Source: Candidatus Omnitrophota bacterium
GTDB taxonomy: Bacteria; Omnitrophota; Gorgyraeia; Aquiviventales; Aquiviventaceae
Reading direction: 5' to 3'
Assembly: GCA_016209275.1 (NCBI GenBank)
Contig: JACQWM010000004.1
Location: forward strand, 42,243 to 106,242
Length of the DNA: 64,000 bases
Shown here: piece by piece, positions 15,662-64,000 of the stretch
Numbering within the stretch: the stretch's first letter is position 1
How the letters are laid out: each line of letters starts with the position of its first letter
Made by a program: the position numbers and the translations under genes
Notes under the pieces: model-generated
Databases searched by the model: none
The model's input: only the letters and a program-made list of their open reading frames with translations
Told to the model about the DNA's origin: nothing

Positions 15662-15666
15662 GCGAA

Positions 15667-17393: not shown

Positions 17394-17439
17394 GCGCGCG
17401 AGACGCACGCGACGTCCCATGCGATCTATCGCGGAGTTG

Positions 17440-39148: not shown

Positions 39149-39164
39149 CGAAAGGAGTCAGGGC

Positions 39165-41718: not shown

Positions 41719-41835
41719 TGCGAGGATGGTGGGGTCGTCTCTGGGCGCGCGTGCGATCGCTATTCTCTCGGAAGAAAAAAACTGAGTCCGGCGCGCAGAA
41801 AAATATTTACCCCATGTGGTAGCCAGGGGATGCCG

Positions 41836-42732: not shown

Positions 42733-42744
42733 CCCGGAGCGGCC

Positions 42745-43599: not shown

Positions 43600-44335
43600 G
43601 GATCGGTTTCGCCTGCGCGGGAAAATCGCCGCCATCGCCGGAGGCGAAGGCCAATTGGGTTCTGCCCTTAGCCGCGCCATGGCGGAATCCGGGATGACGG
43701 TCTACTCGTTGGATCGCGCGCGCGCCGGCATCCGGCGGCGCGAGGTGGCGTGGTTGCGGTGCAACGTGACCGAAAAACGCGATGTCATCGCCTGCCGCAC
43801 GGCGATCCTGAAGCGCCATGGGCGCATCGACGTGCTGCTCAATGCCGCAGGAGCCAATGCGCCGACACCGGCGCTGAAGATCACCGCGAAGGAGTTTCAC
43901 CGGATCGTTGATGTCAATCTCCTCGGCACGCTCTACGGCTGCCAGGTCTTCGGCGAGACGATGGTGAAGCAACGCTGTGGCAGTATCATCAATTTTTCTT
44001 CCGTCTCGCTCGGCCCTCCGCTCTCGAAGGCGTTTGCGTATTCGGCCGCCAAGGCCGGCGTGTACAATCTCACGCAAAATCTTGCGCGGGAGTGGGCGCC
44101 GTTTCAAGTCCGCGTCAATGCGCTGCGTCCGGGGTTCTTTCCCACCGCGTGGAGCTTGACGCATTTCATCGATCGCACGCGCAGGCGGGATATTCTCCGC
44201 CACACGCCGATGGGCCGGTTTGGGAAACCCGAGGAGCTGATCGGCGCCGTCCTCTGGCTGGCCTCGGATGCGGCAAGCTTTGTCACCGGCTCGCTGGTCA
44301 CGGTTGACGGCGGGTTTACCGCCATGACGATCTGA
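43586..44335 (+). CDS. SDR-family oxidoreductase
   Basis: KIAAIAGGEGQLGSAL Rossmann motif. YSAAK catalytic motif. Confidence 0.7.
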   Translation: MIALEDRFRLRGKIAAIAGGEGQLGSALSRAMAESGMTVYSLDRARAGIRRREVAWLRCNVTEKRDVIACRTAILKRHGRIDVLLNAAGANAPTPALKITAKEFHRIVDVNLLGTLYGCQVFGETMVKQRCGSIINFSSVSLGPPLSKAFAYSAAKAGVYNLTQNLAREWAPFQVRVNALRPGFFPTAWSLTHFIDRTRRRDILRHTPMGRFGKPEELIGAVLWLASDAASFVTGSLVTVDGGFTAMTI

Positions 44336-45087
44336 TGAAACGCACGCCGATGGTGGTGGCGGTCACCGGGGGAACGAGCGGCATCGGCTTGGCGGTCGCC
44401 GAGCTCTTCATGGCGCGAGGACACCCGGTGGCGGTCTGCTCGCGGTCCCCGCGGGCGAACGCGTTGCGATCAGCGATGGTCCATGTGCCGCTGGATGTCC
44501 GGCGGCGGGATGCGGTGGCGCAATTTGCCAAGGACGTGCGACAACGATTCGGAACCTTGGATGTGCTGGTCAATTGCGCCGGAGTCTCGCGTTGGCGCGC
44601 GATCACCGATGTGGATGAGGTGTTTGCAGAAGAATTGATCGGCACCAATCTGCTGGGAACGCTGTGGGGCTGCGCGGCGGCCGCGGCGGTGATGAAGCGC
44701 GGTGGGTGCATCGTGAATATCTCCAGCCTGGCGGGCAAGCGGGGCAGTGCCAACAATAGCGTCTACTGCGCGACCAAATTTGCCGTCAATGGCCTCACAC
44801 AAGCACTCGCCAAGGAGCTTGGGCCCCGCGGCATCCGAGTCAACGCGGTCTGCCCAGTGTATGTGGAAACCGAGCACGTTCTTCTATCGCTGGCCGATCC
44901 TGCCTCGCCGGCCGCCGGACGCAACGTGCGAACGTATTTGTCATCATTTGCCTCGACACAGACCGCCCTGGGCCGGCTGCCGACGGCGCGTGAAGTCGCC
45001 GAGGTCGTGTACTTTCTTGCGAGTCCAGCCGCCTCAGCGATCACCGGCCAGTGCGTGAATGTGGATTGCGGGGTGCTGCCCCAATGA
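44335..45087 (+). CDS. SDR-family oxidoreductase
   Basis: VVAVTGGTSGIGLAV Rossmann motif. YCATK catalytic motif. Confidence 0.7.
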   Translation: MKRTPMVVAVTGGTSGIGLAVAELFMARGHPVAVCSRSPRANALRSAMVHVPLDVRRRDAVAQFAKDVRQRFGTLDVLVNCAGVSRWRAITDVDEVFAEELIGTNLLGTLWGCAAAAAVMKRGGCIVNISSLAGKRGSANNSVYCATKFAVNGLTQALAKELGPRGIRVNAVCPVYVETEHVLLSLADPASPAAGRNVRTYLSSFASTQTALGRLPTAREVAEVVYFLASPAASAITGQCVNVDCGVLPQ

Positions 45088-45860
45088 GTGCTTTGCGCAT
45101 CGCCGCGATCATCCCGGCCCGCATGGCCTCCTCGCGCTTTCCCGGCAAGCCGCTGCTGGCGGTCAACGGGTTGCCGATGATTGAGCATGTGCGGCGCCGG
45201 ACCGCGCTGTGCGCCGGGTTTTCCGAAGTGATTGTGGCCACATGCGATCAGGCCATTGCCGAGGTGGTCAAGGCCTATGGCGGAATCTGCGTGATGACAT
45301 CACCGGAGCACCCGGCCGCATCGGATCGCGTGGCCGAGGCGATGGCGCAGCGTGACTGCACGCATGTGGTGAATGTGCAAGGGGATGAAATTTTGGTCTT
45401 GCCACATGATTTGCAGCGGATGGCCTCAGCCATCGAAGCCGCGCCCGAAGTTCCAGCCTGGAATGCGGTGGCCCGGATTGAAACTCGCGAGGAGCTCGGC
45501 GATCCCTCGGTGGTGAAGTGCGTGCTCTCAGGCTCCGGGCGGGTGTTGTATTGCGCGAGGGATTTCTCGGCGCTTGGAGTGCGGCGCGAAGAAGGCTATG
45601 AACCGGTGCGCCGGGTGCTCGGCATTCTCGGCTACCGGAGGGAATTTCTTCAGCGGTACGGCGAGCTTCCGCGCACACCGCTTGAGCGCGCAGGCTCCAT
45701 TGATCAAAACCGCATCCTGGAGCACGATGTGCTGTTGCAGGCGATTGAATTCACCCGAGGCTATCCTGGCATCAACGAGCCGCGCGAGGTCGCGGTGGTG
45801 GAGCAGCTCCTGAGGAGCGATGCGTCACAGCAGGGCGTCTTGCAGGAGATTCTCCGATGA
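45084..45860 (+). CDS. KdsB-like ulosonate cytidylyltransferase (CTP_transf_3)
   Basis: IAAIIPARMASSRFPGKPL N-terminal motif, near-identical to the KdsB/NeuA consensus. Confidence 0.7.
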   Translation: MSALRIAAIIPARMASSRFPGKPLLAVNGLPMIEHVRRRTALCAGFSEVIVATCDQAIAEVVKAYGGICVMTSPEHPAASDRVAEAMAQRDCTHVVNVQGDEILVLPHDLQRMASAIEAAPEVPAWNAVARIETREELGDPSVVKCVLSGSGRVLYCARDFSALGVRREEGYEPVRRVLGILGYRREFLQRYGELPRTPLERAGSIDQNRILEHDVLLQAIEFTRGYPGINEPREVAVVEQLLRSDASQQGVLQEILR

Positions 45861-46798
45861 CGCGGCCGGTGGTGTATGTGGCGTTGCAGCAGTTCTGCGA
45901 GGCGGATGACCGTCCGCGGCGTCTGCTGCAGGAAGCCGGTGTTGCCGTGAACGTCAACAGGCTTGGGCGGCGCATGAAGCGGGAGGATTTGCTGCGGGAA
46001 CTTCCAGGGGTCGATGCGGTGCTCGCCGGGATCGAGCCCTACGACGCCGAGCTGCTCGCGGCCTTGCCGCAGCTTCGGTGCATCAGCCGTTGCGGAGTCG
46101 GCACCGATGCGATTGATCTTGAGGCCGCACAGCGGCTGGGGGTTGCCGTGCTGACCACCGGAGATGAAGTCGTCGAGCCGGTGGCCCAGCTGACCATCGC
46201 CATGATGCTGGCACTCGCGCGCCAGATTCCTGAGCACCTTGCCGATGCGCGCCAAGGCCGATGGACGAAGCGGACCGGGGTGTTGTTGTCCGAATGGACC
46301 ATCGGCCTGGTGGGGTTTGGACGCATCGGGCGTCGTGTGGAGCAGTATCTGCGCCCGTTTCAGCCGACGGTGCTGGTGGCGGATCCGCAGGCCACGTCAA
46401 GCGAGCTTCCAAAATCGGTCCATCTGCGGTCGCTTGAGACGCTGTTGGTAGAGGCGGACTGCGTCTCGCTGCATGTCAGCCGGCCTCGAACTGAGGGTGT
46501 GGTGATCGGCCGCAAGGAGTTCGCGTTGATGAAGCCCGGGGCGGCGCTGATTAATACGTCGCGGGGCTATCTGGTGGATGAAGCCGCGCTGCATGATGCG
46601 ATCCAGGAGCACCGGCTAAGCGCAGCCGCGCTCGACGTCTTCGAGGCCGAGCCGCATGTCGGGCCGCTGGCAACGCTGCCCCAAGTCTTGTGTACTCCGC
46701 ATATCGGCTCCTTGACCCGTGCGTCACGCATGGCCATGGAGCAACGCTGCGCTCAGCACGTGGTCGACTTCTTCGCTGCCGCATCAACGCGACGATGA
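45857..46798 (+). CDS. D-isomer-specific 2-hydroxyacid dehydrogenase
   Basis: NAD-binding motif GLVGFGRIGRRV. ~313 aa. Confidence 0.75.
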   Translation: MTRPVVYVALQQFCEADDRPRRLLQEAGVAVNVNRLGRRMKREDLLRELPGVDAVLAGIEPYDAELLAALPQLRCISRCGVGTDAIDLEAAQRLGVAVLTTGDEVVEPVAQLTIAMMLALARQIPEHLADARQGRWTKRTGVLLSEWTIGLVGFGRIGRRVEQYLRPFQPTVLVADPQATSSELPKSVHLRSLETLLVEADCVSLHVSRPRTEGVVIGRKEFALMKPGAALINTSRGYLVDEAALHDAIQEHRLSAAALDVFEAEPHVGPLATLPQVLCTPHIGSLTRASRMAMEQRCAQHVVDFFAAASTRR

Positions 46799-53610: not shown

Positions 53611-55539
53611 ATGTGCGGCATCGCTGGCGTGGTCCACTTCGACGGGCGTCCGGTTGCGAGCGACGTCCTGCAGGGCATGGTCGCCGCCCTCCGCCACCGC
53701 GGACCGGAGGGCGAAGGGATCCAGAGCCTGGCGACCGGTTCGCTCCGTATCGGACTTGGGCATGCGCGGCTGAAGATCATCGATCTGTCCGATGCGGCGG
53801 CTCAGCCGATGGGAAACGATGATGGCTCCATCTGGCTCGTCTTCAACGGGGAGATCTATAACTTTCGTGAGTTGCGCGCCTCGCTTGAGCAGCGAGGCCA
53901 CCGGTTCCGGACCTCCTCGGATACCGAGGTGTTGCTGAAGCTCTACGAGGCGGACGGCGACGCGTGCGTGCAGCAGCTTGAGGGCATGTTCGCCTTCGCG
54001 ATGTGGGACAGCCGGAAAGGGCAGCTGCTGCTGGCCAGAGACCGGGCAGGGAAGAAGCCGCTGTTCTACCGTGCGACCCCGACGATGATCGCGTTTGCCT
54101 CGGAGATGAAGGCGTTGTTTCAGCACCCGGATATCGTTCCTGAAGTAGACACCGCAACACTTCCTGCGTTTTTTCTCTTTGGGTATGTTCCCTCGCCCGC
54201 GACCATCTACCAGGGGATCCAACAGCTGCCGCCTGGGCAAGTGCTCATCGCAAGAGACGGCCACGTGCGCCTTCAGGAGTACTGGGATGCGCCGCTGCCG
54301 CCGGCATCCAGCGGCCGCGCACCCTCCGAGGCTGAGGCGGCTTCGCGCGTGCGCGAGCTCCTCACGGCGGCAGTGGCACGGCGGCTCATCAGCGACGTGC
54401 CGCTGGGCGCGTTCCTCAGCGGCGGCATTGATTCCTCGATCGTCGTGGGGATCATGAGCCGGCTGTGTGATGAGCCGGTGCGGACGTTCAGCATCGGGTT
54501 TGCCGGGGATCCTGCGTTTGATGAAACGTCCTACGCGCGGATCGTGGCCAAGCGATTTGGCACGCGCCACACGGAGTTTATCGTCGAGCCGAAAGCGATT
54601 GAGCTCATCGACCGGCTCGTGTGGCATCACGACGGTCCGTTTGCCGACTCCTCGGCGATTCCGACCTATCTGCTGGCTCAGTTGACCAAACAGCACGTGA
54701 CGGTGGCGTTAAGCGGCGATGGGGGCGATGAGCTCTTTGCCGGCTATCAGCGGTTCCGCGCGGTCCTGTTGTCAGAAGCGATTCCCAGGTGGCTCCGCAC
54801 GGCCGGCGCTTCAGCGCTGACCCGGCTGCCGGCCTGGGGGCATCCCCGAAGCCTGTATCGCCGAGCGCAACGCTTCGCGCAGGGCACCGTGCTGCCGTTT
54901 GAGCACCGGGTGAACCGCTGGGTCTCAATTTTCTACGAGGATCTGCCGCAGCTGCGGCTCGGCGCATCAGGGGGCGCGACGCATCCTTCGATAGCCTGCG
55001 CGTCCTACCTGGCGCGCAGCCGGCAGGCCTCGGCGCTGACGCAATTGCTCTATGTCAATTTCAAGATGTATCTGTTGGATGACTTGCTCGTGAAAATGGA
55101 TCGGTGCTCCATGGCGCATGCGTTGGAAGCCCGATCGCCGTTTCTGGATCGTGCCCTCATCGAATACGTGTGTGGGCTGCCGGATGCCATGAAACTCCGC
55201 GGAGGAGCGACCAAAGTCATTCTTCGCAAGGCGTTCGCCGACCTGCTGCCCCCGGAAGTGCTCACGCGGGGAAAAATGGGCTTCGGCGTGCCGCTGCATC
55301 ACTGGTTTCGGTATGAGCTGCGCGATTTCGTCACCGATTGGCTGCTTGCACCGAACGCGTTGCTGCGGCAGTATCTGCATCAGCCGTATGTGCGGCAGCT
55401 GGTTCAACAGCACTTCGCCGGGCGCTGCGACCATTCCCACCGGCTGTGGACGCTGCTGACCTTTGAAGTCTGGCTGCAGCAGCTGCGCCGCGGCGCGTTC
55501 CGCGCGGCCGCGCCTTCCCTCAACCTCGTCACACAATAA
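53611..55539 (+). CDS. asnB: Asparagine synthase (glutamine-hydrolysing) family amidotransferase, AsnB/WbpS-like
   Basis: MCGIAG N-terminal nucleophile and an SGGIDSS PP-loop. 642 aa. Confidence 0.85.
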   Translation: MCGIAGVVHFDGRPVASDVLQGMVAALRHRGPEGEGIQSLATGSLRIGLGHARLKIIDLSDAAAQPMGNDDGSIWLVFNGEIYNFRELRASLEQRGHRFRTSSDTEVLLKLYEADGDACVQQLEGMFAFAMWDSRKGQLLLARDRAGKKPLFYRATPTMIAFASEMKALFQHPDIVPEVDTATLPAFFLFGYVPSPATIYQGIQQLPPGQVLIARDGHVRLQEYWDAPLPPASSGRAPSEAEAASRVRELLTAAVARRLISDVPLGAFLSGGIDSSIVVGIMSRLCDEPVRTFSIGFAGDPAFDETSYARIVAKRFGTRHTEFIVEPKAIELIDRLVWHHDGPFADSSAIPTYLLAQLTKQHVTVALSGDGGDELFAGYQRFRAVLLSEAIPRWLRTAGASALTRLPAWGHPRSLYRRAQRFAQGTVLPFEHRVNRWVSIFYEDLPQLRLGASGGATHPSIACASYLARSRQASALTQLLYVNFKMYLLDDLLVKMDRCSMAHALEARSPFLDRALIEYVCGLPDAMKLRGGATKVILRKAFADLLPPEVLTRGKMGFGVPLHHWFRYELRDFVTDWLLAPNALLRQYLHQPYVRQLVQQHFAGRCDHSHRLWTLLTFEVWLQQLRRGAFRAAAPSLNLVTQ

Positions 55540-55581
55540 TTGAGTTGCAAGTGAAGAGCGGTTTCCATACAATTGATGCAG

Positions 55582-55603: not shown

Positions 55604-56242
55604 ATGGACGTTGACGCCTACCGAGAATTACAGCTCCTGACGGAGATTTCCGCAAGCGATTCCGTCACTCAGCGCCGCTTGGCGCAAAAGCATGGCCTGG
55701 CACTGGGCCTGACGAATTTCCTGATCCGACGGCTGGTCAAGAAGGGCTATGTCAAGATCGTCAACTTGGAGCGCAAACGCCTTCGCTATCTCATCACCCC
55801 GAAAGGCATCGCTGAAAAAGCCCGGCTCACCTACGAATACGTGGAATACTCGCTCCACCTCTACCGTCAGATCCGCACCCTGGTGACGCGCACCATCTCG
55901 ACCATGGCCGTCTCAGCGGGCGCTTCCGTCGTGCTCTACGGCACCGGGGAGATCGCGGAGATCGCGTTTCTCTTGATGCAGCAGCGCGGCTTGCGCGTGG
56001 TCGGGGTCGTGGATGAGTCGCGCAGCGACCAGAGCCTGTTCATGAGCCATGCCATCACCCCGCCTGAGGCCCTCGAGCGCCTCTCGTTTGATTGGGTGCT
56101 GATCGCGTCGTTTAAGAATCACCGGCAGATTATCCAGCAGCTCTGCCGCTGGGGCGTGCCGGAGCAAAAAATCGTCCGGATTGCTGAAGAGCAGCAAGTC
56201 CCATCGCTGCCGGAGGCGATGGTGGAGGTCTCCTCATCATGA
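55604..56242 (+). CDS. Winged-helix (MarR-like) transcriptional regulator with C-terminal Rossmann/CoA-binding-like domain
   Basis: The N-terminus SDSVTQRRLAQKHGLALGLTNFLIRRLVKKGYV resembles wHTH. The C-terminus VVLYGTGEIAEIAF... resembles NeuD/sugar-transferase N-terminal domains. Confidence 0.45.
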   Translation: MDVDAYRELQLLTEISASDSVTQRRLAQKHGLALGLTNFLIRRLVKKGYVKIVNLERKRLRYLITPKGIAEKARLTYEYVEYSLHLYRQIRTLVTRTISTMAVSAGASVVLYGTGEIAEIAFLLMQQRGLRVVGVVDESRSDQSLFMSHAITPPEALERLSFDWVLIASFKNHRQIIQQLCRWGVPEQKIVRIAEEQQVPSLPEAMVEVSSS

Positions 56243-57003
56243 GGGTGAAGCGACGGCGGATTCCGAAGGCGCTGGTGGTGATGGGGGTCGGCCTCGGCGC
56301 GGTTTGTCTGCTGATCGCCCCGGTCGCCTCGACGCGGCAAGGGGTGAATTTCCAGGTGTCCCAGCACCGCATCCCTCCGTATGTGAAAGCGATCGATTTC
56401 CTCCATCGGCACTACGCCTATCAGCGCCTGGCACGGGAGATCACCGAGGGCAAGACGACCGATGACGCCCGAGTGCTCGCGGTCTTCAATTGGACGCGGG
56501 AGCATATCCAGCCGATGCCAAAGGGCTGGCCGGTCATCGATGACCACATCCTCAACATCATCATCCGAGGCTATGGCCTCGGCGATCAGATGGCGGATGT
56601 CTTCACCACACTCTCCACGTACGCTGGCGTTCCCGCGTTCTGGAAAGATTTGCGCGCGAGCGACACTCCGGGAGTGCTGGTGCTGTCGTTTGCCAAGATC
56701 GATGGCCAGTGGGTGATCGTCGACGTGGCGGATGGGTTGATCTTCCGTATGCCGGATGGCTCCTTGGCGGATGCCGCCGCACTCGTGGAGAACCCGCCCG
56801 TGCTGAAAACCGTGGTGCAAGCGCGCACCCGCAGCGGCATCGAGTACTGGCGTTACCTTGAAACGATGCGGCCGTTTTCCGTTCCGAACACGCTGCGCGC
56901 GCAGCAGCAGATGCCCGGGCCGCGCCTATGGTTTGAGCTCCGGCGCGCGCTGCATCTGGCCGGCGCGTATGACCAAACACGGTGGGCGCTCCATGCCCGG
57001 TGA
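56239..57003 (+). CDS. Hypothetical membrane-anchored/exported protein
   Basis: N-terminal signal-anchor (ALVVMGVGLGAVCLLIAPVAS). No recognised catalytic motif. Confidence 0.35.
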   Translation: MRVKRRRIPKALVVMGVGLGAVCLLIAPVASTRQGVNFQVSQHRIPPYVKAIDFLHRHYAYQRLAREITEGKTTDDARVLAVFNWTREHIQPMPKGWPVIDDHILNIIIRGYGLGDQMADVFTTLSTYAGVPAFWKDLRASDTPGVLVLSFAKIDGQWVIVDVADGLIFRMPDGSLADAAALVENPPVLKTVVQARTRSGIEYWRYLETMRPFSVPNTLRAQQQMPGPRLWFELRRALHLAGAYDQTRWALHAR

Positions 57004-58036
57004 TCCATCGGCCCTGGCCATGCCTGTCTCCGCCGCGGCGTTTAGCGCATTTCGGATCGGATTCCACCCGGCGGATCAGGTGAGGGTGCTTGAGTATTGG
57101 CGTGAAATTTTTAATTCGCAACAGTGGGTGGAAGGCCAGTACACCAAGCGCTTCGAGGAGTTGTGGGCCGCGTGGAATGCGCTGCCGGCGGTGGCGACCT
57201 CAAGCTGGGGCGGGGCTGCGCTGGCCGCCTTGGACTATTTCAAGGTTCGCGGGAAAACCGTGCTATGCCCTACGAATACGTTCATGGCAACCCCGCTGTC
57301 GGTCATCCATGCCGGCGGGACGGTCGTCTTCGGCGACTGCAACCGAGACGATTTGTGCCTCAGCTACGAGGCGGTGGCGCAGGCGGCCAAGGCGCAGGAG
57401 CTTGCGGCCGTGTGGCTCGTGCACATCGGCGGCCATCTGGCTTTTGACACGCCGCGCATCGCGGAGTTCTGCCGGGCCAACGGCATCATCCTGCTTGAAG
57501 ATTGCGCCCACGCGCATGGGGCCTCATGGCACGGCCAGCGGCCTGGCAGCTTCGGCGATGCCGGGGTCTATTCATTTTACGGCACCAAAACGATTTCGAC
57601 CGGCGAGGGCGGCATGCTGGTCTCAAAACATCCTGGCCTCATCGAGTTCGCGAAAGGATTCCGCAATTACGGCAAGCCAACCTACCAGGTGTCGGGCCTG
57701 AACTACCGGATGTCGGAGTTCACCGCGGCCCTCGGCGTGGTCCAGGTTGAGCGCATGGAGGAGATCGTGGCCTGGAAGCGCGCGGTGGCGGCCAGGGATC
57801 TTGATCCTGTGTTTGCGCAGCGCGTGCGGCTGCCTGAGGGTATGCAGTCCGGCTACTACAAATACATCGTGTTTGAGCCGATTGCGCGCTCCAGCGGCAA
57901 GGTTTACGACACGCTCTGCCACACCATCATGGGGCAGGGCGGATCATTTCCCAACGCCGAGTGGATCGCGCAGCATCACTGGTGCGTTCCGCTCTATTAC
58001 CATCCTGAGCTGGACAACAATGGAGTGGATGCATGA
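56993..58036 (+). CDS. DegT-family PLP-dependent sugar aminotransferase/dehydratase (third copy)
   Basis: Lys-region SFYGTKTISTGEGGM. Start uncertain. Confidence 0.65.
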   Translation: MPGDPSALAMPVSAAAFSAFRIGFHPADQVRVLEYWREIFNSQQWVEGQYTKRFEELWAAWNALPAVATSSWGGAALAALDYFKVRGKTVLCPTNTFMATPLSVIHAGGTVVFGDCNRDDLCLSYEAVAQAAKAQELAAVWLVHIGGHLAFDTPRIAEFCRANGIILLEDCAHAHGASWHGQRPGSFGDAGVYSFYGTKTISTGEGGMLVSKHPGLIEFAKGFRNYGKPTYQVSGLNYRMSEFTAALGVVQVERMEEIVAWKRAVAARDLDPVFAQRVRLPEGMQSGYYKYIVFEPIARSSGKVYDTLCHTIMGQGGSFPNAEWIAQHHWCVPLYYHPELDNNGVDA

Positions 58037-58974
58037 GAGTTCTCGTGACAGGCGGCGCAGGCTTTATTGGATCGCATGTGGTGGATCGTTTGGTGGCGCA
58101 CGGGGTGGTGCCGCTCATCTTCGATCAGCAGCGCTCCACGTATCACCCGTCGGTCGAGCACTGCATCGGCAGCATCCTGGACGTGGAGGCCCTGCGGGTG
58201 GCGATGTTCGGTGTGCAAGCGATCATCCATCTGGCGGCGGTTGCGGATGTGAAAGATGTATTCGAGGATCCTTCCTACGCCGAAATGGTGAACACGCGCG
58301 GCACGGCCTGCGTGCTCGAGGCGGTCCGGCGCTCCAAGGTGATGCGCATCGTCTATGGCAGCACGACTTGGGTGTATAGCGACGTGCCCCAGCAGGAGGT
58401 GGACGAAGACACGCCATTGGCCGCGCCCTCGCATCTGTACACCGCCACGAAAATCGCGTCGGAATATTACTGCCAGGCGTACGCAAAGCTCTACGGCATC
58501 GAGTACACGATCCTGCGCTTCGGCATTCCCTATGGCCCTCGCGCGCGCGATGGGGCGGTGATCCCGATCTTCGTCAACAAAGCGCTTCAGGGCGAGCCGC
58601 TGACGATCGCCGGCGACGGCTCGCAGTTCCGCAAGTTCGTCTATGTCGAGGACCTGGCTGAGGGCAACGCGCTGGCGTTAGCTCCAGCCGCGAAGAATCG
58701 CATCTATAACCTCGATGGAGCTGAGCCGGTGACGATCAAGCAGATCGCCGAGACGGTGCAGCGCGTCCTCGGCGGCGCGCGCATTGAGTATGTGGCGGCC
58801 CGGCCTGGGGATTTCAGCGGCAAGCGGGTGCTCAGCGCGCGGGCGAAACAGGAGCTTGGATGGGAGCCGACGACGCCATTTGAAGAGGGCGTGCGGCGGT
58901 ACGTGCAGTGGGTCAAGCACCGGAAGGACCAGCGGGATGCGGAAGAAGCCCGGCTCGACCCGGCCTTGCGGTAG
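58033..58974 (+). CDS. NAD-dependent sugar epimerase (GalE-like)
   Basis: VLVTGGAGFIGSHVV Rossmann motif. YTATK catalytic motif. Confidence 0.75.
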   Translation: MRVLVTGGAGFIGSHVVDRLVAHGVVPLIFDQQRSTYHPSVEHCIGSILDVEALRVAMFGVQAIIHLAAVADVKDVFEDPSYAEMVNTRGTACVLEAVRRSKVMRIVYGSTTWVYSDVPQQEVDEDTPLAAPSHLYTATKIASEYYCQAYAKLYGIEYTILRFGIPYGPRARDGAVIPIFVNKALQGEPLTIAGDGSQFRKFVYVEDLAEGNALALAPAAKNRIYNLDGAEPVTIKQIAETVQRVLGGARIEYVAARPGDFSGKRVLSARAKQELGWEPTTPFEEGVRRYVQWVKHRKDQRDAEEARLDPALR

Positions 58975-58992
58975 CGCGGCGATGCGCTGGGC

Positions 58993-59715
58993 ATGAGTCG
59001 GATCAGCGTGATCCTCTGCTGTTATAACGGAGCCCCCTGGGTCGGCGAGGCGCTGGGGAGCCTTGACCGACAAACCATGCCGCGCGATGGCTACGAAGTG
59101 GTCTTCGTCAATGACGGGTCCACCGACGCGACAGAACAGGCGATGGCCCCGTATCGTGCGCGCAGCAACGTGCAGTACCTGGCCCATGAGCGCAATCAAG
59201 GGCTCGTGGCCTCCTGCAACCAGGCGCTTGAGGCCTCACACGGCGAGTATATCGTCCGCCTGGATGCGGACGACACGTTTGAGCCGCCGCTGCTTGAACG
59301 GATGTCGACGCTGCTGCGTGAGGGCCAGACCGATCTGGTGTATTCCGACCGCTACGAGTGGTCCGAGAAGCGCCGGGCGCGCCGTCTCATCACATTAGGG
59401 AGCTTTAATCTTTTTGATCTGACGGCCGTCGGGACCATGATGCGGCGCGATCTCGTGTTGAGCGTCGGGGGGTACCGCGAACTCTTCTGGGAAGAATACG
59501 ACCTCTACCTGCGGTATTTGCTGCGCAGCGGCCGGGCGGCGTCCCGGGTGCCTGAGCCGCTGTTTACGTACCGCCGCCACCACGGCAGCATGACCAGTGA
59601 TCCTGCGGCGGTGCGCCGTGGATGGGAAGAGTTGCAGCGAGTGTGGCCGGCAAGCATGCTGGAACGGTTTGGGCGGTGTCCGGATTCAACAGCCTGCGCA
59701 GAGGCCGCGTTCTGA
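58993..59715 (+). CDS. GT2-family glycosyltransferase
   Basis: ISVILCCYNGAPWV...VNDGSTD...DADD motifs. Confidence 0.7.
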   Translation: MSRISVILCCYNGAPWVGEALGSLDRQTMPRDGYEVVFVNDGSTDATEQAMAPYRARSNVQYLAHERNQGLVASCNQALEASHGEYIVRLDADDTFEPPLLERMSTLLREGQTDLVYSDRYEWSEKRRARRLITLGSFNLFDLTAVGTMMRRDLVLSVGGYRELFWEEYDLYLRYLLRSGRAASRVPEPLFTYRRHHGSMTSDPAAVRRGWEELQRVWPASMLERFGRCPDSTACAEAAF

Positions 59716-60524
59716 TGGCGCCGCGGACCACCATCATTGCGGAGATCGGCGAGAACCATGTCGGCGACTGGGATCGCGCGCGGCAGATGATCTGTGCTGC
59801 CGCCGCCACCGGCGCGGACATCGTCAAATTTCAGTCCTATCGCAGCGCGGATGTGGCGGATGACGATCCGGAAAAGACGTGGTTTGGGCGCGTGGAAGTC
59901 CCGGATGCCGTGCACCGGCAGCTCGCCCAGGCGGCTCGAGCCGCCGGGGTGGGATTCTTGAGCGCGCCGTTCACCGTTGAGCGGGCGCAGTTTCTGTGCG
60001 AGCAGATGGGATTGCGGGCCGTCAAGATCGCCTCCTCCGAGCTGTTGAACAGGCGGTTGTTGGACTATGTGAGCACGCAGGCGGAGACGGTGTATCTGTC
60101 GACAGGGATGGCGACGCTGGATGAGGTGCGCGAGGCGGTCACCCGCCTGCGCGCCGTCCCGCGCGTGATCATCATGCATTGCGTGACCCAGTACCCGCTG
60201 AAGGATGAGGACGCCAACTTGCGGGCCATCGAAGCGCTGCGGCAGGCGTTCCCTGAGCATTCGATCGGATACTCTGATCACACCATCGGGATCACGGCGC
60301 CGCTGATCGCCGTGGCGTTGGGCGCTGCCGTGATCGAGAAGCATTTCACCATGGATAAATCGCTGCCAGGCACGGATCATGCGCTCTCTGTCACCCCGGA
60401 GGAGCTCAGGGCCATGGTGGACGGCATTCGCCGGGTGGAGCGGCTCTTGGGGGTGGCCGAGAAGCAGCCGGTGGCGGCGGAGCTGGCCATTCGCGACGCG
60501 GTCCGTGCGAGGTTTCCGAAATGA
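59715..60524 (+). CDS. NeuB-family ulosonate synthase lacking the SAF domain (SpsE/PseI-like)
   Basis: TTIIAEIGENHVGD...DIVKFQSY signature. Only ~269 aa, with no C-terminal SAF domain. Confidence 0.65.
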   Translation: MAPRTTIIAEIGENHVGDWDRARQMICAAAATGADIVKFQSYRSADVADDDPEKTWFGRVEVPDAVHRQLAQAARAAGVGFLSAPFTVERAQFLCEQMGLRAVKIASSELLNRRLLDYVSTQAETVYLSTGMATLDEVREAVTRLRAVPRVIIMHCVTQYPLKDEDANLRAIEALRQAFPEHSIGYSDHTIGITAPLIAVALGAAVIEKHFTMDKSLPGTDHALSVTPEELRAMVDGIRRVERLLGVAEKQPVAAELAIRDAVRARFPK

Positions 60525-62620
60525 GCCAAGAGCCGATGCGCATCTTCCTCGCCGATCTCACGCACGACGGCACCGGCAAGCTCGCCGTCGACATGATGCC
60601 CTACAACATCGGCCTCATCGCCTCGTATGCCAAGCAGCAGCTTGGCGATGCGGTGCAGATTTCGCTCTTCAAATATGTGCAACCGCTGCTTGAGGCGCTG
60701 AAGTGCCAACCGCCGCACATCCTCGGATGCAGCAATTACGTGTGGAACAGCCACCTCTCGGAATTCGCCTGCGAGCACGCGAAGCAGATCAACCCCGCGA
60801 TCGTCACGGTGCAAGGGGGCACGAACTATCCGTTTGACGCGCCAAGCCAGCTGGCGTTTCTGTCAACGCGGCCAGCCACGGATCTCCACGTGTACTATGA
60901 AGGCGAGGCCGCGTTTGTGAATCTTCTCAAGGCGTTTCAATCGTCTCCTGATGTCCGCGAGCTGCGCGAGCGTCCGATCGACGGATGCCAGTCCATCTCG
61001 CCGACCACCGGCCGGTTGGTGTCCGGAGCCGCGGTGGCGCGCATCAGCGCGTTGGGGGAGATCCCCTCGCCCTATGCCACCGGCCTCTTGGATCAATTTT
61101 TCGATGGGCGGCTCACTCCCATTGTCGAAACGAATCGCGGGTGCCCCTTCACGTGCAACTTCTGCAACGCCGGCAACAGCTATTTTTCGAAGGTCAACAT
61201 GTTCCCGCTGGAGCATCTGGAGGCGGAGTTTTCCTACATCGCGCCGCGGATGGCGGCCTCAGGCGTGGGCCTGCTCGTGCTGGCCGACAACAATTTCGGC
61301 ATGTATCCTCGCGATGCGGAGCTCTGCCGGATCCTCAAGCGGCTGCAGGAGCGGCACGGCTGGCCCCTGCGCATCCTCTCGACCACCGGCAAGAACAGCA
61401 AGGACCGCATCATCAAGGCGACGGAAATCTTAGGGACCAGCATGAGCATCAACATGTCTGTCCAATCAATGAACCAGGCGGTGCTGGAGAACATCCGGCG
61501 TCAGAATGTGAGTCTTGAGGCGTACCAGCAGATCAACGAGGTGCTGGTGCGACAGGGCCGCGTGCAGAAAGCCGAGATGATCGTGCCGCTGCCTGGCGAA
61601 ACGCTCGCGTCGTTCATGCAGGGTCTGAAGGAGCTCATGGACACCAAGGCCCAGCTCATCTACTCCTATACGCTGCAACTGCTCTACGGCACGGAGTACA
61701 AGGACGCGGCGTACCGAGCCCAGTGGGGCTACCAGGGCAAGTGGCGGCTCGTGCCGCTGAATTTCGGCGCCTACGACGGCACGAAGATCTTTGACGTGGA
61801 AGAAGTGGCGGTGGCGTCCAAGAGCCTGTCATTCGACGACTATGTGAAGATCCGCGTCTTCGCGCTGCTGACGGAGACGATGTACAACGATTATCAATGC
61901 TGGGAATTCGTGAAATATCTCAATGCGTGGGGGATTTCGCCGTTTGATTGGCTGGCGAACACGGCGGAGCACCTGCACCAGGCCCCCGAGTCCGTTCAAC
62001 AGATCGTGCAAAGTTTCATCCGTGATACCCAAGAAGAGCTGTGGGATTCAGAAGAGGCCTTATTCGAGTTTTATCGCCGGCCGGAACATTATGCCCGGCT
62101 GCTCAAGGGCGAGGCCGGGCATAATGTCGTGTTTACCCATAAAGGCCTGATGATCAGCCGGCATATTGAGGACTGGGTGCCGTTCATCGCCCGCATGTGC
62201 CGCGAACTCGTCCAGGAGCGCGTGCCCACCGCGAACCCTGAGGCCGTGAGGAAGGAGGTTCACGCGCTTGAGCAGTTCCTGCTGGCGAAATTCGAAGGGG
62301 TCTTGCGCAAGGATGGAAACGTTGACGACGTGTTCGTGGAGCTTGCCTACGACATCCCTCAATGGCTCAGCGACAGCAGCGGCAAACCCCTCGGCGCCTT
62401 TGCGCGCGAAACGCCGATGGCCTTCCGCGTGTACTTTACGGATGCTCAACGCAAAGAGCGTGAACAATGCCTGAGACTCTACGGCTTTGATCGCATCGGC
62501 CTGGCCAGGATTTTCGCGCGCAATCCATCGCTGAACACCTTGTATCGCGCCGTGGAGCCTGCGGGGCAGGCGGTCACGATTCCCCAGCGCCCTGAGTGGC
62601 GGCCGGCATGGAACAATTAA
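60521..62620 (+). CDS. Cobalamin-binding-domain radical SAM enzyme (class B, putative methyltransferase)
   Basis: N-terminal B12-binding-like region, a CPFTCNFC (Cx3Cx2C) cluster and a long C-terminal extension. 699 aa. Confidence 0.7.
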   Translation: MSQEPMRIFLADLTHDGTGKLAVDMMPYNIGLIASYAKQQLGDAVQISLFKYVQPLLEALKCQPPHILGCSNYVWNSHLSEFACEHAKQINPAIVTVQGGTNYPFDAPSQLAFLSTRPATDLHVYYEGEAAFVNLLKAFQSSPDVRELRERPIDGCQSISPTTGRLVSGAAVARISALGEIPSPYATGLLDQFFDGRLTPIVETNRGCPFTCNFCNAGNSYFSKVNMFPLEHLEAEFSYIAPRMAASGVGLLVLADNNFGMYPRDAELCRILKRLQERHGWPLRILSTTGKNSKDRIIKATEILGTSMSINMSVQSMNQAVLENIRRQNVSLEAYQQINEVLVRQGRVQKAEMIVPLPGETLASFMQGLKELMDTKAQLIYSYTLQLLYGTEYKDAAYRAQWGYQGKWRLVPLNFGAYDGTKIFDVEEVAVASKSLSFDDYVKIRVFALLTETMYNDYQCWEFVKYLNAWGISPFDWLANTAEHLHQAPESVQQIVQSFIRDTQEELWDSEEALFEFYRRPEHYARLLKGEAGHNVVFTHKGLMISRHIEDWVPFIARMCRELVQERVPTANPEAVRKEVHALEQFLLAKFEGVLRKDGNVDDVFVELAYDIPQWLSDSSGKPLGAFARETPMAFRVYFTDAQRKEREQCLRLYGFDRIGLARIFARNPSLNTLYRAVEPAGQAVTIPQRPEWRPAWNN

Positions 62621-63765
62621 TGGAGCGTTCGGGCCGCGTGCGCGTGTTGGCGGCTGCGCAGGAAGCGGGCGCAGCCAACGCGCTGGTTCCGGTCATCACC
62701 ACGTTGCGCCGAAGCCTGTCTGCCGAGGTGGTCGTCGCCGCCTGCGCGCAAGCGGCAGAGGTCTTTGCGGGTGCCGGGCTCTCGCCACGCCAGGCGGACG
62801 CGATCGAACCGTTGATGCGCGAGGCATCGCCCAACGTCCTGCTATTGGGCACATCGTGGGGATGGACGCTCGATAAACGCTTGCTGTCGCTCGGCAATGA
62901 GTGCTTGCTGCCGTCGGTCTCGGTGGTGGATCATTGGACCCATTACCGAGAGCGGTTTCTTGATCCGAGATCGAATCGGCTCGTGCTTCCCACGAGAATC
63001 GCGGTGCCGGATCAGGTAGCACTCGCCCAAGCCGCGCGCGCAGGTCTGCCTGAGGATCTGATGATCGCGACCGGGCACCCGCATCTTGAAACCATGATCA
63101 ACGCCTTGGAAGCCCCAGGGTGCCAAGCGCGCGCTCGCGAGCTGCGCCGGGCTTGGTGCGAATCGCTCGGCCGATCGCCTGATGGCTCGCGCGTCGTCCT
63201 GTTCGTATCAGAGCCGTTTTCTCAATTTCATGGGCCAGGCAGCCCGTCCCCGTATGATTTTACTGAGCAAGACGCCCTGGAGGGCGTTGTGGAAGCGATT
63301 GAAACACTCGAGCAGCAGACGCGCGGGCGTCTAGCGCTGGTAGTGAAGCGGCACCCGCGGGAGCAATCGCAACCGCTGCAGTTTGGGTCGCGCGCGAAGC
63401 GTCGCAATCTCTGCGTGGTGTCAGGACAAGAGCCGTCATCTGTTTGCGTCATGGCGGCTGATCTCGTCGTGGGGATGTTGTCGATGGTGTTGCTGGAGGC
63501 GGTGCTCGCCGGCCGGCCGGCGAGCAGCTTCCGGCCGACGCGGACCGCTGCCGAGGCATTTATCGGCTCTGAGCTGGGTCTGGTTGAGTCTGCCTTCTCC
63601 GTTGAGGCGCTGCGGCGATGGCTCAGCGAGGCGTGCAGCGCCGGATCATCCGCCAGAGATCGGATGCGCCAGGCCGCCGCAGGAGTGCTCGCGCATCAGG
63701 GGGCCGCCGCTCGGATCGCCGATCTGGTGATGGAGCTGGCGGTTGAGGCCAGGATGGCGTCATGA
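62608..63765 (+). CDS. Hypothetical protein, capsule-synthesis/GT-B-like (KxHP motif)
   Basis: VVKRHPRE motif and overall resemblance to the C-terminal halves of the 28130 and 30208 proteins. Confidence 0.35.
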   Translation: MEQLMERSGRVRVLAAAQEAGAANALVPVITTLRRSLSAEVVVAACAQAAEVFAGAGLSPRQADAIEPLMREASPNVLLLGTSWGWTLDKRLLSLGNECLLPSVSVVDHWTHYRERFLDPRSNRLVLPTRIAVPDQVALAQAARAGLPEDLMIATGHPHLETMINALEAPGCQARARELRRAWCESLGRSPDGSRVVLFVSEPFSQFHGPGSPSPYDFTEQDALEGVVEAIETLEQQTRGRLALVVKRHPREQSQPLQFGSRAKRRNLCVVSGQEPSSVCVMAADLVVGMLSMVLLEAVLAGRPASSFRPTRTAAEAFIGSELGLVESAFSVEALRRWLSEACSAGSSARDRMRQAAAGVLAHQGAAARIADLVMELAVEARMAS

Positions 63766-64000
63766 ATATCGTGGCGACGGTTCAAGCGCGGATGGGGTCC
63801 TCGCGCCTTCCGGGAAAAGTGCTGAAGCCGATTGTCGGAAAACCGATGCTGCAACTGCAGATTGAGCGGATTCAGCAGAGCCGATTGATCGATCAGGTTG
63901 TGATTGCCACCTCAGTGGAGCAGGGCAACGATCCGATTGAACGGCTAGCCCATACGCTTGGCGTCGGATGTTTCCGGGGCAGCGAAGAGGACTGCTTATC
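63762..64000 (+). CDS. Ulosonate cytidylyltransferase (PseF/SpsF-like), 3'-truncated at window edge
   Basis: IVATVQARMGSSRLPGKVL N-terminal motif. The ORF runs off the end of the window. Confidence 0.65.
   Translation, partial: MNIVATVQARMGSSRLPGKVLKPIVGKPMLQLQIERIQQSRLIDQVVIATSVEQGNDPIERLAHTLGVGCFRGSEEDCL

Follow-up and report, generated by a model that had tools for sequence, protein, structure and literature searches.

A putative second ulosonic acid operon with a predicted cobalamin-dependent radical SAM C-methyltransferase in an Omnitrophota genome

The last part of the window, the 64,000-nucleotide stretch of a Candidatus Omnitrophota contig analysed here, is occupied by a run of close-packed, mostly overlapping genes on the + strand (56993-64000). 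Judged by the starts and stops of the genes, neighbours from the DegT gene to the cytidylyltransferase gene overlap by 1-4 nt, with the single exception of an 18-nt gap. Open reading frames and domain matches place on this strand all six genes that a first-pass annotation had named in the run. Its list omitted one complete open reading frame, which encodes a 381-aa GT-B-fold protein. The DegT gene is the third in the window, as had been claimed, the other two starting at 7455 and 26742. The genes of the run and the two that precede it are as follows.

55604..56242, + strand, MarR/HTH_24-type regulator, 212 aa (PF13412, E 2e-6)
56239..57003, + strand, 254-aa protein weakly matching a transglutaminase core (PF01841, E 7e-4)
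56993..58036, + strand, DegT-family PLP aminotransferase, 347 aa (PF01041, E 1e-60)
58033..58974, + strand, extended SDR, 313 aa (PF01370, E 4e-53)
58993..59715, + strand, small soluble GT2, 240 aa, with the DxD motif 'DADD' (PF00535, E 6e-30)
59715..60524, + strand, SAF-less NeuB-family PEP-condensing ulosonate synthase, 269 aa (PF03102, E 2e-71)
60521..62620, + strand, cobalamin-dependent radical SAM enzyme, 699 aa (PF04055 and a weak PF02310 match)
62620..63765, + strand, GT-B-fold protein, 381 aa, between the radical SAM and cytidylyltransferase genes
63762..64000, + strand, CTP_transf_3 cytidylyltransferase gene, 5' portion of 79 aa truncated where the window stops (N-terminal matches to KdsB/PseF, E 6e-14 to 7e-10)

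The sequence past position 64000 is available in an identical public contig (L001), in which the cytidylyltransferase is completed to 253 aa (PF02348, E 3e-25) and followed by the gene of a 331-aa Gfo/Idh/MocA oxidoreductase, packed like the genes in the window. The radical SAM and NeuB proteins each have a 100% identical record from a 'Candidatus Omnitrophica' MAG and thousands of homologues; therefore, they are products of real genes and not chance reading frames. The 212-aa regulator is probably encoded by the first gene of the sub-cluster. It scores 66 bits against the MarR_EPS model TIGR04176, under the cut-off of 88. A similar HTH_24 gene lies ahead of the cassette in locus L091, and homologues of the regulator occur near radical SAM genes of the same family in loci L020, L035, L036, and L077. 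The 64-nt gap upstream of the regulator contains a sigma-70-like site (55545-55573), in a region where the number of such sites is at chance level. The start of the gene for the 254-aa protein, which scores 20 bits against PF01841 (cut-off 23), overlaps the stop of the regulator gene.

Translated from its ATG at 56993, the DegT reading frame gives 347 aa; a TTG at 56858 is an alternative opening. The top NCBIfam matches of the protein are PseC and LegC, both far under their cut-offs, and the translation retains the lysine of 'YGTKTIS'. The 313-aa SDR is, by its motifs, of the epimerase/oxidoreductase type and not a 4,6-dehydratase. The motif 'YGSTTWVYS', which is conserved across the cassette orthologues, replaces the T-D/S-E of dehydratases, and the acid/base pair (Asp/Glu) was absent when the motif was compared among these orthologues and with the LegB-like SDR of the window, which reads 'STSEVYG'. 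The stop of the GT2 gene overlaps the start of the NeuB gene in the window, and in seven other loci (L082, L083, L085, L087, L088, L090, and L091) the GT2 gene as called likewise runs into the start of NeuB. This type of NeuB is almost always encoded in one operon with a small GT2.

The only domain match of the NeuB protein is PF03102 (residues 25-249), and the domain search found no SAF domain in its 269 residues. Since the stop of the gene overlaps the next start, a SAF-coding sequence hidden by a frameshift is ruled out. Like NeuB, LegI, PseI, SpsE, and the PDB entry 6ncs, the protein is built on the NeuB TIM-barrel domain, and every PEP, metal, and catalytic residue is present. The counterparts of E25, K53, Q55, K129, S132, E134, S154, S213, H215, E234, H236, and D247 of N. 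meningitidis NeuB are kept and cover its metal, PEP, and catalytic positions. In contrast, F288 and R314 of the N. meningitidis SAF domain, which form sugar contacts in NeuB-type synthases, have no counterparts. In the PDB, the protein is matched best by the 290-residue chain 6ncs, followed by B. subtilis SpsE, and it scores 267 against the cut-off of 400 for NeuB_NnaB and 199 against that of 340 for PseI. It belongs to a tight clade of SAF-less proteins of 263-292 aa (bootstrap 98/100), and the bootstrapped tree gave no supported tie of this clade to SpsE, 6ncs, LegI, or PseI. The possibility raised earlier that the protein is an SpsE orthologue of a sporulating organism thus has no bootstrap support, and the source is an Omnitrophica MAG. 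We do not regard the missing SAF domain as an oddity in itself, because the clade is large, the structure of a SAF-less NeuB has been solved (6ncs), and such proteins have been discussed in the published literature.

The genes for DegT, the epimerase-type SDR, the small GT2, the SAF-less NeuB, and the CTP_transf_3 protein form a five-gene core cassette that travels as a unit. It recurs in unrelated metagenomes with or without the radical SAM gene, and DegT orthologues occupy the same cassette in L082, L083, L085, L087, and L090. The radical SAM gene is missing from the cassettes of L082 and L083/84, whereas L085/86 has the same core with no called cytidylyltransferase gene and a gene for a radical SAM protein of ~700 aa divergently upstream. 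The order NeuB-rSAM-X389-CTP3 is found in the window, L087, and L088; NeuB-rSAM-CTP3 in L091; and SDR-rSAM-GT2-NeuB-CTP3 in L090. Two accessory genes, that of the GT-B protein among them, are inserted in the window between the synthase and cytidylyltransferase genes. Since the cassette works without the radical SAM gene in other genomes, the enzyme would carry out a tailoring step and not a core reaction.

A full legionaminic-type set lies at about 13.5-28 kb of the same window and comprises a NeuB with SAF domain, Epimerase_2, a PglD-like acetyltransferase, a CBS-NTP-transferase, a dehydratase-type SDR, DegT, CTP_transf_3, Gfo, and HisF/H. The recurrence of the cassette elsewhere and the presence of this separate cluster support the earlier proposal of a second, distinct CMP-ulosonate pathway at the locus. 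As in the Leg and Pse pathways (LegB/C/H/G/I/F; PseB/C/H/G/I/F), an aminotransferase and an SDR share one operon with a PEP-condensing synthase and a CTP_transf_3 protein, but in the cassette the SDR lacks the dehydratase residues and the synthase the SAF domain. Neither a PglD/PseH-type acetyltransferase nor Epimerase_2/PseG was found in the core cassette, which has the GT2 in their place. In relatives, the cassette is extended by another DegT together with a WbuX amidotransferase and a GNAT protein. The part of the sub-cluster in the window was found to contain neither an N-acetyltransferase nor a clear NDP-sugar hydrolase, and a nine-carbon diamino sugar is therefore no more than a possible product.

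The radical SAM enzyme has the architecture of TokK and CysS and is predicted from sequence and model to be a C-methyltransferase. Its CxxxCxxC motif (C208/C212/C215) is invariant in the family, and profile comparison with the PDB identified TokK (E 5e-64) and CysS (E 2e-57). The alignment of the AF2 model (pLDDT 88.5) to TokK spans about 670 columns (TM 0.71-0.77), and the model matches TokK and CysS over the full length (TM 0.68-0.77), whereas the next enzyme, OxsB, reaches 0.48; similarity to TsrM and AprD4 is likewise far weaker. The N-terminal Rossmann cobalamin domain, the radical SAM barrel, and the large C-terminal domain, which the authors of the TokK study termed distinct to TokK, are all present. 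The tryptophan under the corrin is shared in an S-x-Y-V-W-N context, W75 of 'SNYVWN' aligning with Trp76 of TokK. The enzyme thus groups with methylating class B enzymes and not with non-methylating ones. The assignment as a class B methylase in the first-pass annotation is supported, but its nearest characterised relatives are TokK and CysS, not GenK or Fom3.

Both TokK/ThnK, which alkylates carbapenems at C6, and CysS, which extends the alkoxy group of cystobactamids, are cobalamin-dependent radical SAM C-methyltransferases acting on pantetheine-linked, non-sugar substrates. They share 20-23% identity with the enzyme in structural alignment and belong to antibiotic or polyketide clusters, whereas its setting is sugar biosynthesis. 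The substrate-binding Arg280 of TokK is not conserved, nor is Trp215. The nearest curated model, the NCBIfam KedN5 family, covers the first ~400 residues with 180 bits against a cut-off of 700. Because of this score and the loss of Arg280, homology gives no readout of the substrate, the handle of which is likely a CMP-sugar or sugar instead of pantetheine. Fom3 and GenK/GenD1 resemble the enzyme in cobalamin-dependent radical SAM methylation of sp3 carbons, but are not its nearest relatives; neither is among the NCBIfam matches listed, and the PDB matches are TokK and CysS. The substrate of Fom3 is CMP-linked, which provides a useful analogy for a CMP-ulosonate.

The family counts over 2000 homologues, not one of which bears a functional name, and is linked to nonulosonic-acid clusters. 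Members lie inside such clusters in numerous lineages of bacteria and archaea, among them SAR11, Nitrospira, Chlorobium, Planctomycetes, and Thaumarchaeota, and many are located in Leg/Pse operons, such as that of L016 (NeuB, Epimerase_2, acetyltransferase, PtmE, SDR, DegT, rSAM, NeuA). We counted neighbours in 63 near-full-length GTDB loci and in a stricter subset of 40 with flanks of at least 6 kb on both sides. A NeuB gene was present within 10 kb of the radical SAM gene in 33 of the 63 loci (52%) and 24 of the 40 (60%), and was not found within this distance in about 40-48%. Several SAR11 loci had none of the query genes nearby, and no one neighbour was fixed beside the radical SAM gene across the loci. 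The NeuB-free and bare SAR11 loci indicate that the tie may be to surface-glycan islands generally. No publication connecting radical SAM enzymes with nonulosonic acids came up in a literature search.

The 381-aa GT-B-fold protein is probably a ulosonate glycosyltransferase, and an NDP-sugar hydrolase/2-epimerase-like role is possible. Its sequence indicates distant relationship to pseudaminic/legionaminic-acid transferases. It resembles BFO_1060/Tanf_01245 of Tannerella forsythia and the 'surface carbohydrate biosynthesis protein' model TIGR04396 in its invariant His-Pro, GT-B type, and location in a ulosonate cluster. Its relatives match these models, including the BFO_1060 family, members of which were genetically shown to be transferases of Pse/Leg derivatives. 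A LIC12162-family transferase fills the equivalent slot in other loci.

Based on these observations, we consider it fairly probable that the region from 55.6/57.0 to 64.0 kb is the front of an operon that directs the synthesis of a second CMP-activated ulosonic acid of a non-canonical kind, separate from the upstream legionaminic-type pathway. What follows is a proposal as regards the sequence of reactions, the nature of the sugar, the site of methylation, and the roles of the GT2 and GT-B proteins. DegT and the SDR would make an amino-sugar aldose, with which the SAF-less NeuB would condense PEP, and the cytidylyltransferase would turn the acid into its CMP ester. C-methylation of the ulosonate by the radical SAM enzyme is plausible. 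One SAM would serve to form methylcobalamin and a second to generate the 5'-deoxyadenosyl radical, which would take hydrogen from an unactivated carbon, either in the ulosonate itself or in one of its N-acyl or O-alkyl groups. The methyl would then pass from the cobalt to this carbon. By analogy with TokK and CysS, methylation may be repeated. The GT-B protein would move the finished sugar onto an acceptor.

It is conceivable, if rather unlikely, that a substituent of the ulosonate is methylated and not its carbon backbone. An N-acetyl or N-acetimidoyl group could be extended at its methyl to propionyl/propionimidoyl or to branched homologues, and an O-methyl group could become ethoxy or isopropoxy, as with CysS and KedN5. 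CysS enlarges methoxy to larger alkoxy groups, and TokK targets a carbon adjoining a carbonyl. The radical SAM gene adjoins WbuX-type amidotransferase/HisH/HisF (acetamidino) genes in L009, L011, L013, L015, and L048, the extended cassette of L087 contains WbuX (340 bits, cut-off 203), and the window encodes several class I and FkbM O-methyltransferases. However, many loci of the family lack a nearby amidotransferase or O-methyltransferase, and natural ulosonates carrying acyl or alkyl groups extended in this manner are not known to us. Furthermore, CMP-activated C10 ulosonic acids reported by mass spectrometry from Magnetospirillum still contain the additional carbon once all acyl groups are lost; this organism is not known to carry the radical SAM gene.

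We find it improbable that the enzyme is merely co-located with ulosonate genes and tailors a different component produced by the surface-glycan islands, be it a sugar, lipid anchor, or protein, or performs non-methylating chemistry. The loci without NeuB or any query gene and the lack of a fixed partner agree with such a role, as do the many other tailoring enzymes of the islands, including a second type of B12 radical SAM and SPASM radical SAM proteins, and cobalamin radical SAM enzymes such as OxsB, which do not methylate. However, the gene occurs in the clade of the window at three positions inside the five-gene cassette, an arrangement that is difficult to account for unless the genes serve one pathway, and in deeper clades between core Leg genes; its full-length similarity is to the methylases TokK and CysS. 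That NeuB, DegT, SDR, and the cytidylyltransferase are spare isozymes for the upstream product is very unlikely: the two NeuB proteins are 42% identical, DegT, extended SDR, CTP_transf_3, and Gfo genes are common to both clusters, and the sub-cluster in the window has no acetyltransferase or Epimerase_2 of its own, but the two NeuB proteins fall into different well-supported clades, the dehydratase residues are confined to the Leg-type SDR, the two cytidylyltransferases have no mutual BLASTP match at E 1e-5, and the cassettes of L082 and L083 occur in 20-kb stretches with no called SAF-type NeuB or Epimerase_2.

No biosynthesis was proposed for the C10 ulosonic acids of Magnetospirillum. The radical SAM family is a testable candidate for their formation and might account for ten-carbon microbial sugar acids.

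From 53.6 kb to the end of the window, all long open reading frames with a protein-family match are located on the forward strand.

Genes from 53.6 kb to the end of the window (window coordinates, strand, product, length)
53611–55539, +, asparagine synthase-like gene, 642 aa
55604–56242, +, HTH_24/MarR-type regulator, 212 aa
56239–57003, +, weak transglutaminase-core match, 254 aa
56993–58036, +, DegT aminotransferase, 347 aa
58033–58974, +, extended SDR, 313 aa
58993–59715, +, GT2, 240 aa
59715–60524, +, NeuB domain only, 269 aa
60521–62620, +, B12-binding radical SAM protein (rSAM), 699 aa
62620–63765, +, protein without a Pfam family, 381 aa
63762–64000, +, first part of a CTP_transf_3 cytidylyltransferase, ends with the window, 79 aa

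Successive genes from DegT onwards overlap by 1–4 nt, with an 18-nt gap before the GT2 gene as the sole exception, an arrangement that corresponds to a single translationally coupled operon. The first-pass annotation listed its genes correctly but left out the one encoding the 381-aa protein. The public contig L001 (8.1 kb), which is identical to the window end and extends past it, encodes the full cytidylyltransferase of 253 residues, followed by a 331-residue Gfo/Idh/MocA oxidoreductase (Gfo). The source name on identical proteins is a 'Candidatus Omnitrophica bacterium' MAG. Promoter and terminator scans gave results at chance level, with only a site upstream of the regulator gene sensibly placed, and an Rfam search of the window, including the cobalamin riboswitch, gave no match at the gathering score.

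The genes at 56993–64000 had been proposed to constitute a second CMP-ulosonate pathway, distinct from others in the locus. The window contains a complete legionaminic-type set of genes at about 13.5–28 kb, which comprises Gfo/Idh/MocA, CTP_transf_3, a short-chain SDR, a 353-aa NeuB with a SAF domain (18207–19268), Epimerase_2, a PglD-like acetyltransferase, a HisF/HisH fusion, a CBS-nucleotidyltransferase, a dehydratase-type SDR, and DegT. The two NeuB proteins of the window are 42% identical to each other. A second, distinct pathway is supported, the decisive point being that the core of the sub-cluster recurs elsewhere as a unit. The cassette DegT-SDR-GT2-NeuB (about 270 aa, no SAF)-CTP_transf_3 is present in the comparison loci L082 and L083/84, and L085/86 contains the core DegT-SDR...GT2-NeuB with no called CTP_transf_3. 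None of these loci has an rSAM gene between the cassette genes. Within the 20 kb fetched for L082 and L083, there is no called SAF-type NeuB or Epimerase_2, and the cassette is therefore independent of a neighboring legionaminic cluster. The cassette of DegT, SDR, GT2, SAF-less NeuB, and cytidylyltransferase is an undescribed pathway variant.

The 269-aa synthase of the cassette matches the NeuB domain PF03102 with an E-value of 2e-71 and retains the counterparts of the Neisseria meningitidis NeuB (NmNeuB) residues E25, K53, Q55, K129, S132, E134, S154, S213, H215, E234, H236, and D247. In NeuB-family synthases, the C-terminal SAF (antifreeze-like) domain contributes contacts to the substrate (R314) across the dimer. 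The 269-aa protein does not match PF08666 (SAF), it stops 20 residues past the NeuB domain, where the next gene begins immediately, and it has no equivalents of the SAF-domain residues F288 and R314 of NmNeuB. The synthase is not a truncation artefact, since its 120 best homologues are equally short (263–292 aa), contain PF03102 only, and are 61–76% identical to it. When tested against the NeuB_NnaB and PseI equivalog cut-offs, it scored 267.5 bits versus 399.65 for TIGR03569 and 198.9 versus 340.25 for TIGR03586. The current annotations of the cassette synthase are 'N-acetylneuraminate synthase family protein', 'sialic acid synthase SpsE', and 'N,N'-diacetyllegionaminate synthase'. A neighbor-joining tree of the NeuB domain, the comparison suggested in the first-pass annotation, separated the two synthases of the window. 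The SAF-less one belongs to a clade with bootstrap support of 98/100, and the 353-aa NeuB groups with synthases that have Epimerase_2 and PtmE neighbors, which identifies it as legionaminic-type. The best PDB match of the 269-aa NeuB is the 290-residue chain of 6ncs, presumably a Leptospira structural-genomics structure. The tree placed the SAF-less clade near 6ncs and Bacillus subtilis SpsE with a bootstrap of only 0–1/100, and orthology to SpsE was therefore dropped. A second, independent clade of SAF-less NeuB proteins (285–291 aa, bootstrap 99/100) occurs in the rSAM-containing loci L036, L057, L066, and L025; in L066 it is encoded two genes from the rSAM. The SAF domain is absent from about 30% of UniProt nonulosonic acid synthases, with the SAF-less ones grouping among environmental taxa (PMC8208679). 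Absence of the domain therefore marks the clade and is not a novelty.

Among the remaining cassette enzymes, the SDR carries the motif 'YGSTTWVYS', which is kept in four orthologues, at the position where 4,6-dehydratases have T-D/S-E and the LegB-like SDR of the window has 'STSEVYG'. A LegB/RmlB-type NDP-HexNAc 4,6-dehydratase is ruled out by these active-site residues ('STTW', no acid/base pair). The cassette SDR is thus an epimerase or an oxidoreductase, and the sugar need not be of the 6-deoxy (later 9-deoxy) type. The part of the sub-cluster within the window encodes no acetyltransferase and no Epimerase_2 or PseG. The stop of the GT2 gene overlaps the start of the NeuB gene in the window, and an overlap between the called GT2 gene and the NeuB start is also seen in L082, L083, L085, L087, L088, L090, and L091. 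We infer that the GT2 protein could act as a GT-A enzyme and release the aldose from the nucleotide. The 79-aa CTP_transf_3 fragment in the window matches the N-termini of KdsB and PseF. The full 253-aa cytidylyltransferase matches PF02348 (E 3e-25) only within its first ~126 residues and scores below all NCBIfam cut-offs. Past the Gfo gene, the operons of the closest relatives continue by one of two routes: the first contains a ~445-aa PseC-like DegT, a WbuX-type N-acetyl-sugar amidotransferase (340 bits, cut-off 203), an amidase, and GNAT, and the second a methyltransferase and a flippase. These downstream routes point to a diamino, acetamidino-type acid. Just downstream of the cassette, L082 contains a phosphonate set at 14703–18631 (PEP mutase-nucleotidyltransferase fusion, split TPP decarboxylase, and Fe-ADH), which suggests phosphonate decoration of the same glycan. 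A DUF4910 protein is encoded beside the cassette in L083 and L090.

The rSAM had been read as a C-methylating enzyme, and homology together with gene context supports this as its predicted function. It contains the CxxxCxxC [4Fe-4S] motif in the radical SAM barrel (C208, C212, and C215; PF04055 E 3e-9). Its match to PF02310 is weak (19 bits versus a cut-off of 32). The protein has an N-terminal Rossmann-type cobalamin domain with the tryptophan of the S-x-Y-V-W-N motif. The alignment of the rSAM to TokK begins at residue 25, and W75 of the sequence 'SNYVWN' aligns with TokK Trp76, which was reported in the TokK paper to lie beneath the cobalt and to have the same sequence context in CysS. In an alignment of 26 family members with 42–74% identity, W75, C208, C212, C215, and many other positions are invariant. 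A profile search of the PDB identified TokK (E 5e-64) and CysS (E 2e-57), with no other match better than 1e-3. The AlphaFold model of the rSAM (pLDDT 88.5, pTM 0.88) was matched by Foldseek to TokK over 663–674 columns with TM-scores of 0.71–0.77 and to CysS with 0.68–0.76, followed by OxsB (0.48) and TsrM (0.42). All three domains of TokK are common to the rSAM, including the large C-terminal domain, which the TokK authors described as distinct to TokK and as a substrate-binding element, whereas TokK residues Arg280 and Trp215 are not conserved. The best NCBIfam model is the KedN5 family of methylcobalamin-dependent C-methyltransferases (NF033712), which the rSAM matches only in residues 14–403 and with 179.6 bits versus a cut-off of 700. 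Judged by sequence, the rSAM family is related to the KedN5 family and separate from it. We conclude that the rSAM is a predicted cobalamin radical SAM C-methylase of the TokK/CysS build that belongs to a family of its own. Both TokK and CysS add several methyl groups successively.

A word-indexed search found 2007 homologues of the rSAM at E≤1e-5, none of which has a functional name. Scanning GTDB with one genome per species and two peptide patterns as the query identified 80 loci of the family. The bacterial hosts include Planctomycetes, Omnitrophota, Chlorobium, Nitrospira, Nitrospinota, Elusimicrobia, Beta- and Deltaproteobacteria, Magnetovibrio, SAR324, Dehalococcoidia, many Pelagibacteraceae (one complete genome), and Prochlorococcus, and the family is also found in Nitrosopumilales, Nanoarchaeota, and others. 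A NeuB homologue is encoded within 10 kb of the rSAM in 33 of the 63 loci with a near-full-length match and in 24 of the 40 loci with flanks of at least 6 kb on both sides, figures that have no matched control for 'any glycan-island gene'. In about 40–48% of the rSAM loci, NeuB is not encoded within 10 kb, and several SAR11 loci lack any query gene nearby. In some loci, the rSAM is located inside standard legionaminic or pseudaminic acid operons: the gene order in L016 is NeuB, Epimerase_2, acetyltransferase, PtmE, SDR, DegT, rSAM, NeuA, Gfo; in L011 the genes HisF, HisH, amidotransferase, rSAM, PtmE, SDR, and DegT follow one another; and in L048 the rSAM gene is flanked by those of the amidotransferase and HisH. 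All-against-all clustering of 71 loci did not reveal a constant neighbor of the rSAM. Frequent neighbors are a LIC12162-family transferase (449 bits, cut-off 225), a second type of B12 radical SAM protein, SPASM radical SAM proteins, and NeuA. The order of genes is NeuB-rSAM-GT-B-CTP_transf_3 in the window, L087, and L088, NeuB-rSAM-CTP_transf_3 in L091, and SDR-rSAM-GT2-NeuB-CTP_transf_3 in L090. This repeated insertion of the rSAM at three different points of the cassette is the best evidence that it works in the cassette pathway, and since the cassette is also found without the rSAM, the enzyme represents a tailoring step.

The members of the family from SAR11 come from many single-cell genomes and one complete Pelagibacter genome. 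The Pelagibacteraceae loci (L020, L026, L027, L029–L032, L034, L036, and L037) and the Prochlorococcus locus L024 often have no recognizable NeuB nearby. A TonB-dependent receptor gene is located two genes upstream of the rSAM in L029–L031 and adjacent to it in L026. SAR11 bacteria are usually described as having little use for B12. In L005, L007, and L021, the rSAM is immediately preceded by a recurring trio of genes encoding a DUF4910/DUF2172 aminopeptidase-like protein, a member of the unnamed family c30, and a radical SAM/SPASM protein; L069 has the same arrangement with c30 missing. A single glycan cluster can contain two or three different B12-type radical SAM genes, together with both SAF-less and SAF-containing NeuB (L091: 3589–5160, 10001–12121, and 21124–22121; L085: 1510–3672 and 18152–19708).

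The 381-aa protein has no Pfam family and no sequence match in the PDB, and only fold and profile searches were informative. Its AlphaFold model (pLDDT 89) has a GT-B fold, and an exhaustive profile search returned 12,030 representative clusters at E≤1e-3. Against the models of the BFO_1060 family and TIGR04396, the 381-aa protein reaches 17.6 bits (cut-off 200) and 15.6 bits (cut-off 125), respectively. Among 31 relatives, 20 match TIGR04396 and 16 the BFO_1060 family, with a best E-value of 8e-17. The BFO_1060 family includes genetically shown transferases of pseudaminic and legionaminic acid derivatives from Tannerella, which have an HP motif, and H245-P246 is invariant in the family of the 381-aa protein. 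The gene follows the rSAM in the window, L002, L087, L088, and L089, and is absent from cassettes lacking the rSAM; in L091 the equivalent position is occupied by a LIC12162-family transferase. An NDP-sugar hydrolase or epimerase is the alternative, and we favor a transferase for the finished sugar.

Several other loci of the window were recorded. No second copy of the rSAM was found in the window, and the adjacent 705- and 704-aa ORFs at 28–32 kb, considered as paralogues, are unrelated to it. Of these two ORFs, which together span 28094–32322, the first lacks a Pfam family; the N-terminus of the second carries a HAD-like domain sharing 46% identity over 138 aa with the C-terminal portion of the ORF at 18–1061. 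The region 39114–46798 contains a third CTP_transf_3 cytidylyltransferase (45051–45860) with an HpcH/HpaI-type aldolase (42745–43599), two short-chain SDRs, a D-2-hydroxyacid dehydrogenase, a transaldolase/FSA-like protein, an FkbM and a class I methyltransferase, and a GDSL esterase. It may represent a third route to a CMP-activated acid sugar, in which a pyruvate aldolase replaces NeuB. At 4476–6892, the gene for a 471-aa TylC3-type NDP-sugar C-methyltransferase (Methyltransf_13/14) directly precedes those for a 334-aa radical SAM/SPASM protein, GNAT, and DegT, so that sugar C-methylation of the classical, non-radical kind is encoded in the locus as well. The region 8615–11870 contains three tandem paralogues (354, 372, and 358 aa) with 30–48% identity; in a Pfam scan of the first two, the first gave a weak GT2 match and the second no family.

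Based on the predicted activity of the rSAM, a role in the synthesis of longer ulosonic acids can be proposed. In this scenario, a backbone carbon of a nonulosonic acid, either free or CMP-linked, would receive one or more methyl groups from the enzyme, for example at the terminal C9 methyl of a 9-deoxy sugar or at the C3 methylene. Kleikamp et al. 2020 (PMC8157484) detected ulosonic acids with more than nine carbons in Magnetospirillum gryphiswaldense and, less abundantly, in Methanococcus. A 2026 preprint reported CMP-activated species with m/z 679.198, 693.214, and 707.230 in M. gryphiswaldense and, for DMB derivatives, a C10 marker of 311.10 instead of 297.09 (bioRxiv 10.64898/2026.04.20.719630). 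Neither study proposes genes or a biosynthetic route. The m/z series is spaced by CH2, which is the pattern expected from an iterative C-methylase. Members of the rSAM family are present in two Magnetovibrio MAGs (L016 and L079), and we hypothesize that the family is linked to the C10 acids of Magnetospirillum. Alternatively, these acids could arise if a relaxed NeuB condensed PEP with a heptose. We speculate, while regarding it as rather unlikely, that the rSAM family is the enzyme still missing for 'higher-carbon' ulosonic acids, extending C9 to C10 or longer by TokK/CysS-like backbone methylation. If so, methylation by the family would account for both the C10 marker keto acids and the CH2-spaced series.

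A literature search, with most subscription journals outside its coverage, found no paper joining 'radical SAM' with 'nonulosonic', and those joining it with 'legionaminic' or 'pseudaminic' were apparently unrelated as judged by title and abstract. As far as we could find, a cobalamin methylase of the TokK/CysS type has not been described as a widespread accessory of ulosonic-acid clusters, here located inside a SAF-less NeuB cassette; the individual enzymes are of known kinds.

Flagella, S-layers, capsules, and LPS are coated with nonulosonic acids, which influence recognition by both phages and immune systems. To our knowledge, their known diversity lies in stereochemistry and in N- and O-substituents, and radical C-methylation would be a new route to it. 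TokK/CysS-like enzymes are so far known mostly from antibiotic pathways, and a member acting on sugars would join the small set of methylases of this type with solved structures. The rSAM family reaches abundant marine and soil lineages and is a concrete candidate for the origin of the ten-carbon ulosonic acids raised by mass-spectrometry surveys. If the proposed function is correct, the rSAM would diversify the surface sugars of environmental bacteria and archaea on a wide scale, SAR11 and Thaumarchaeota among them.
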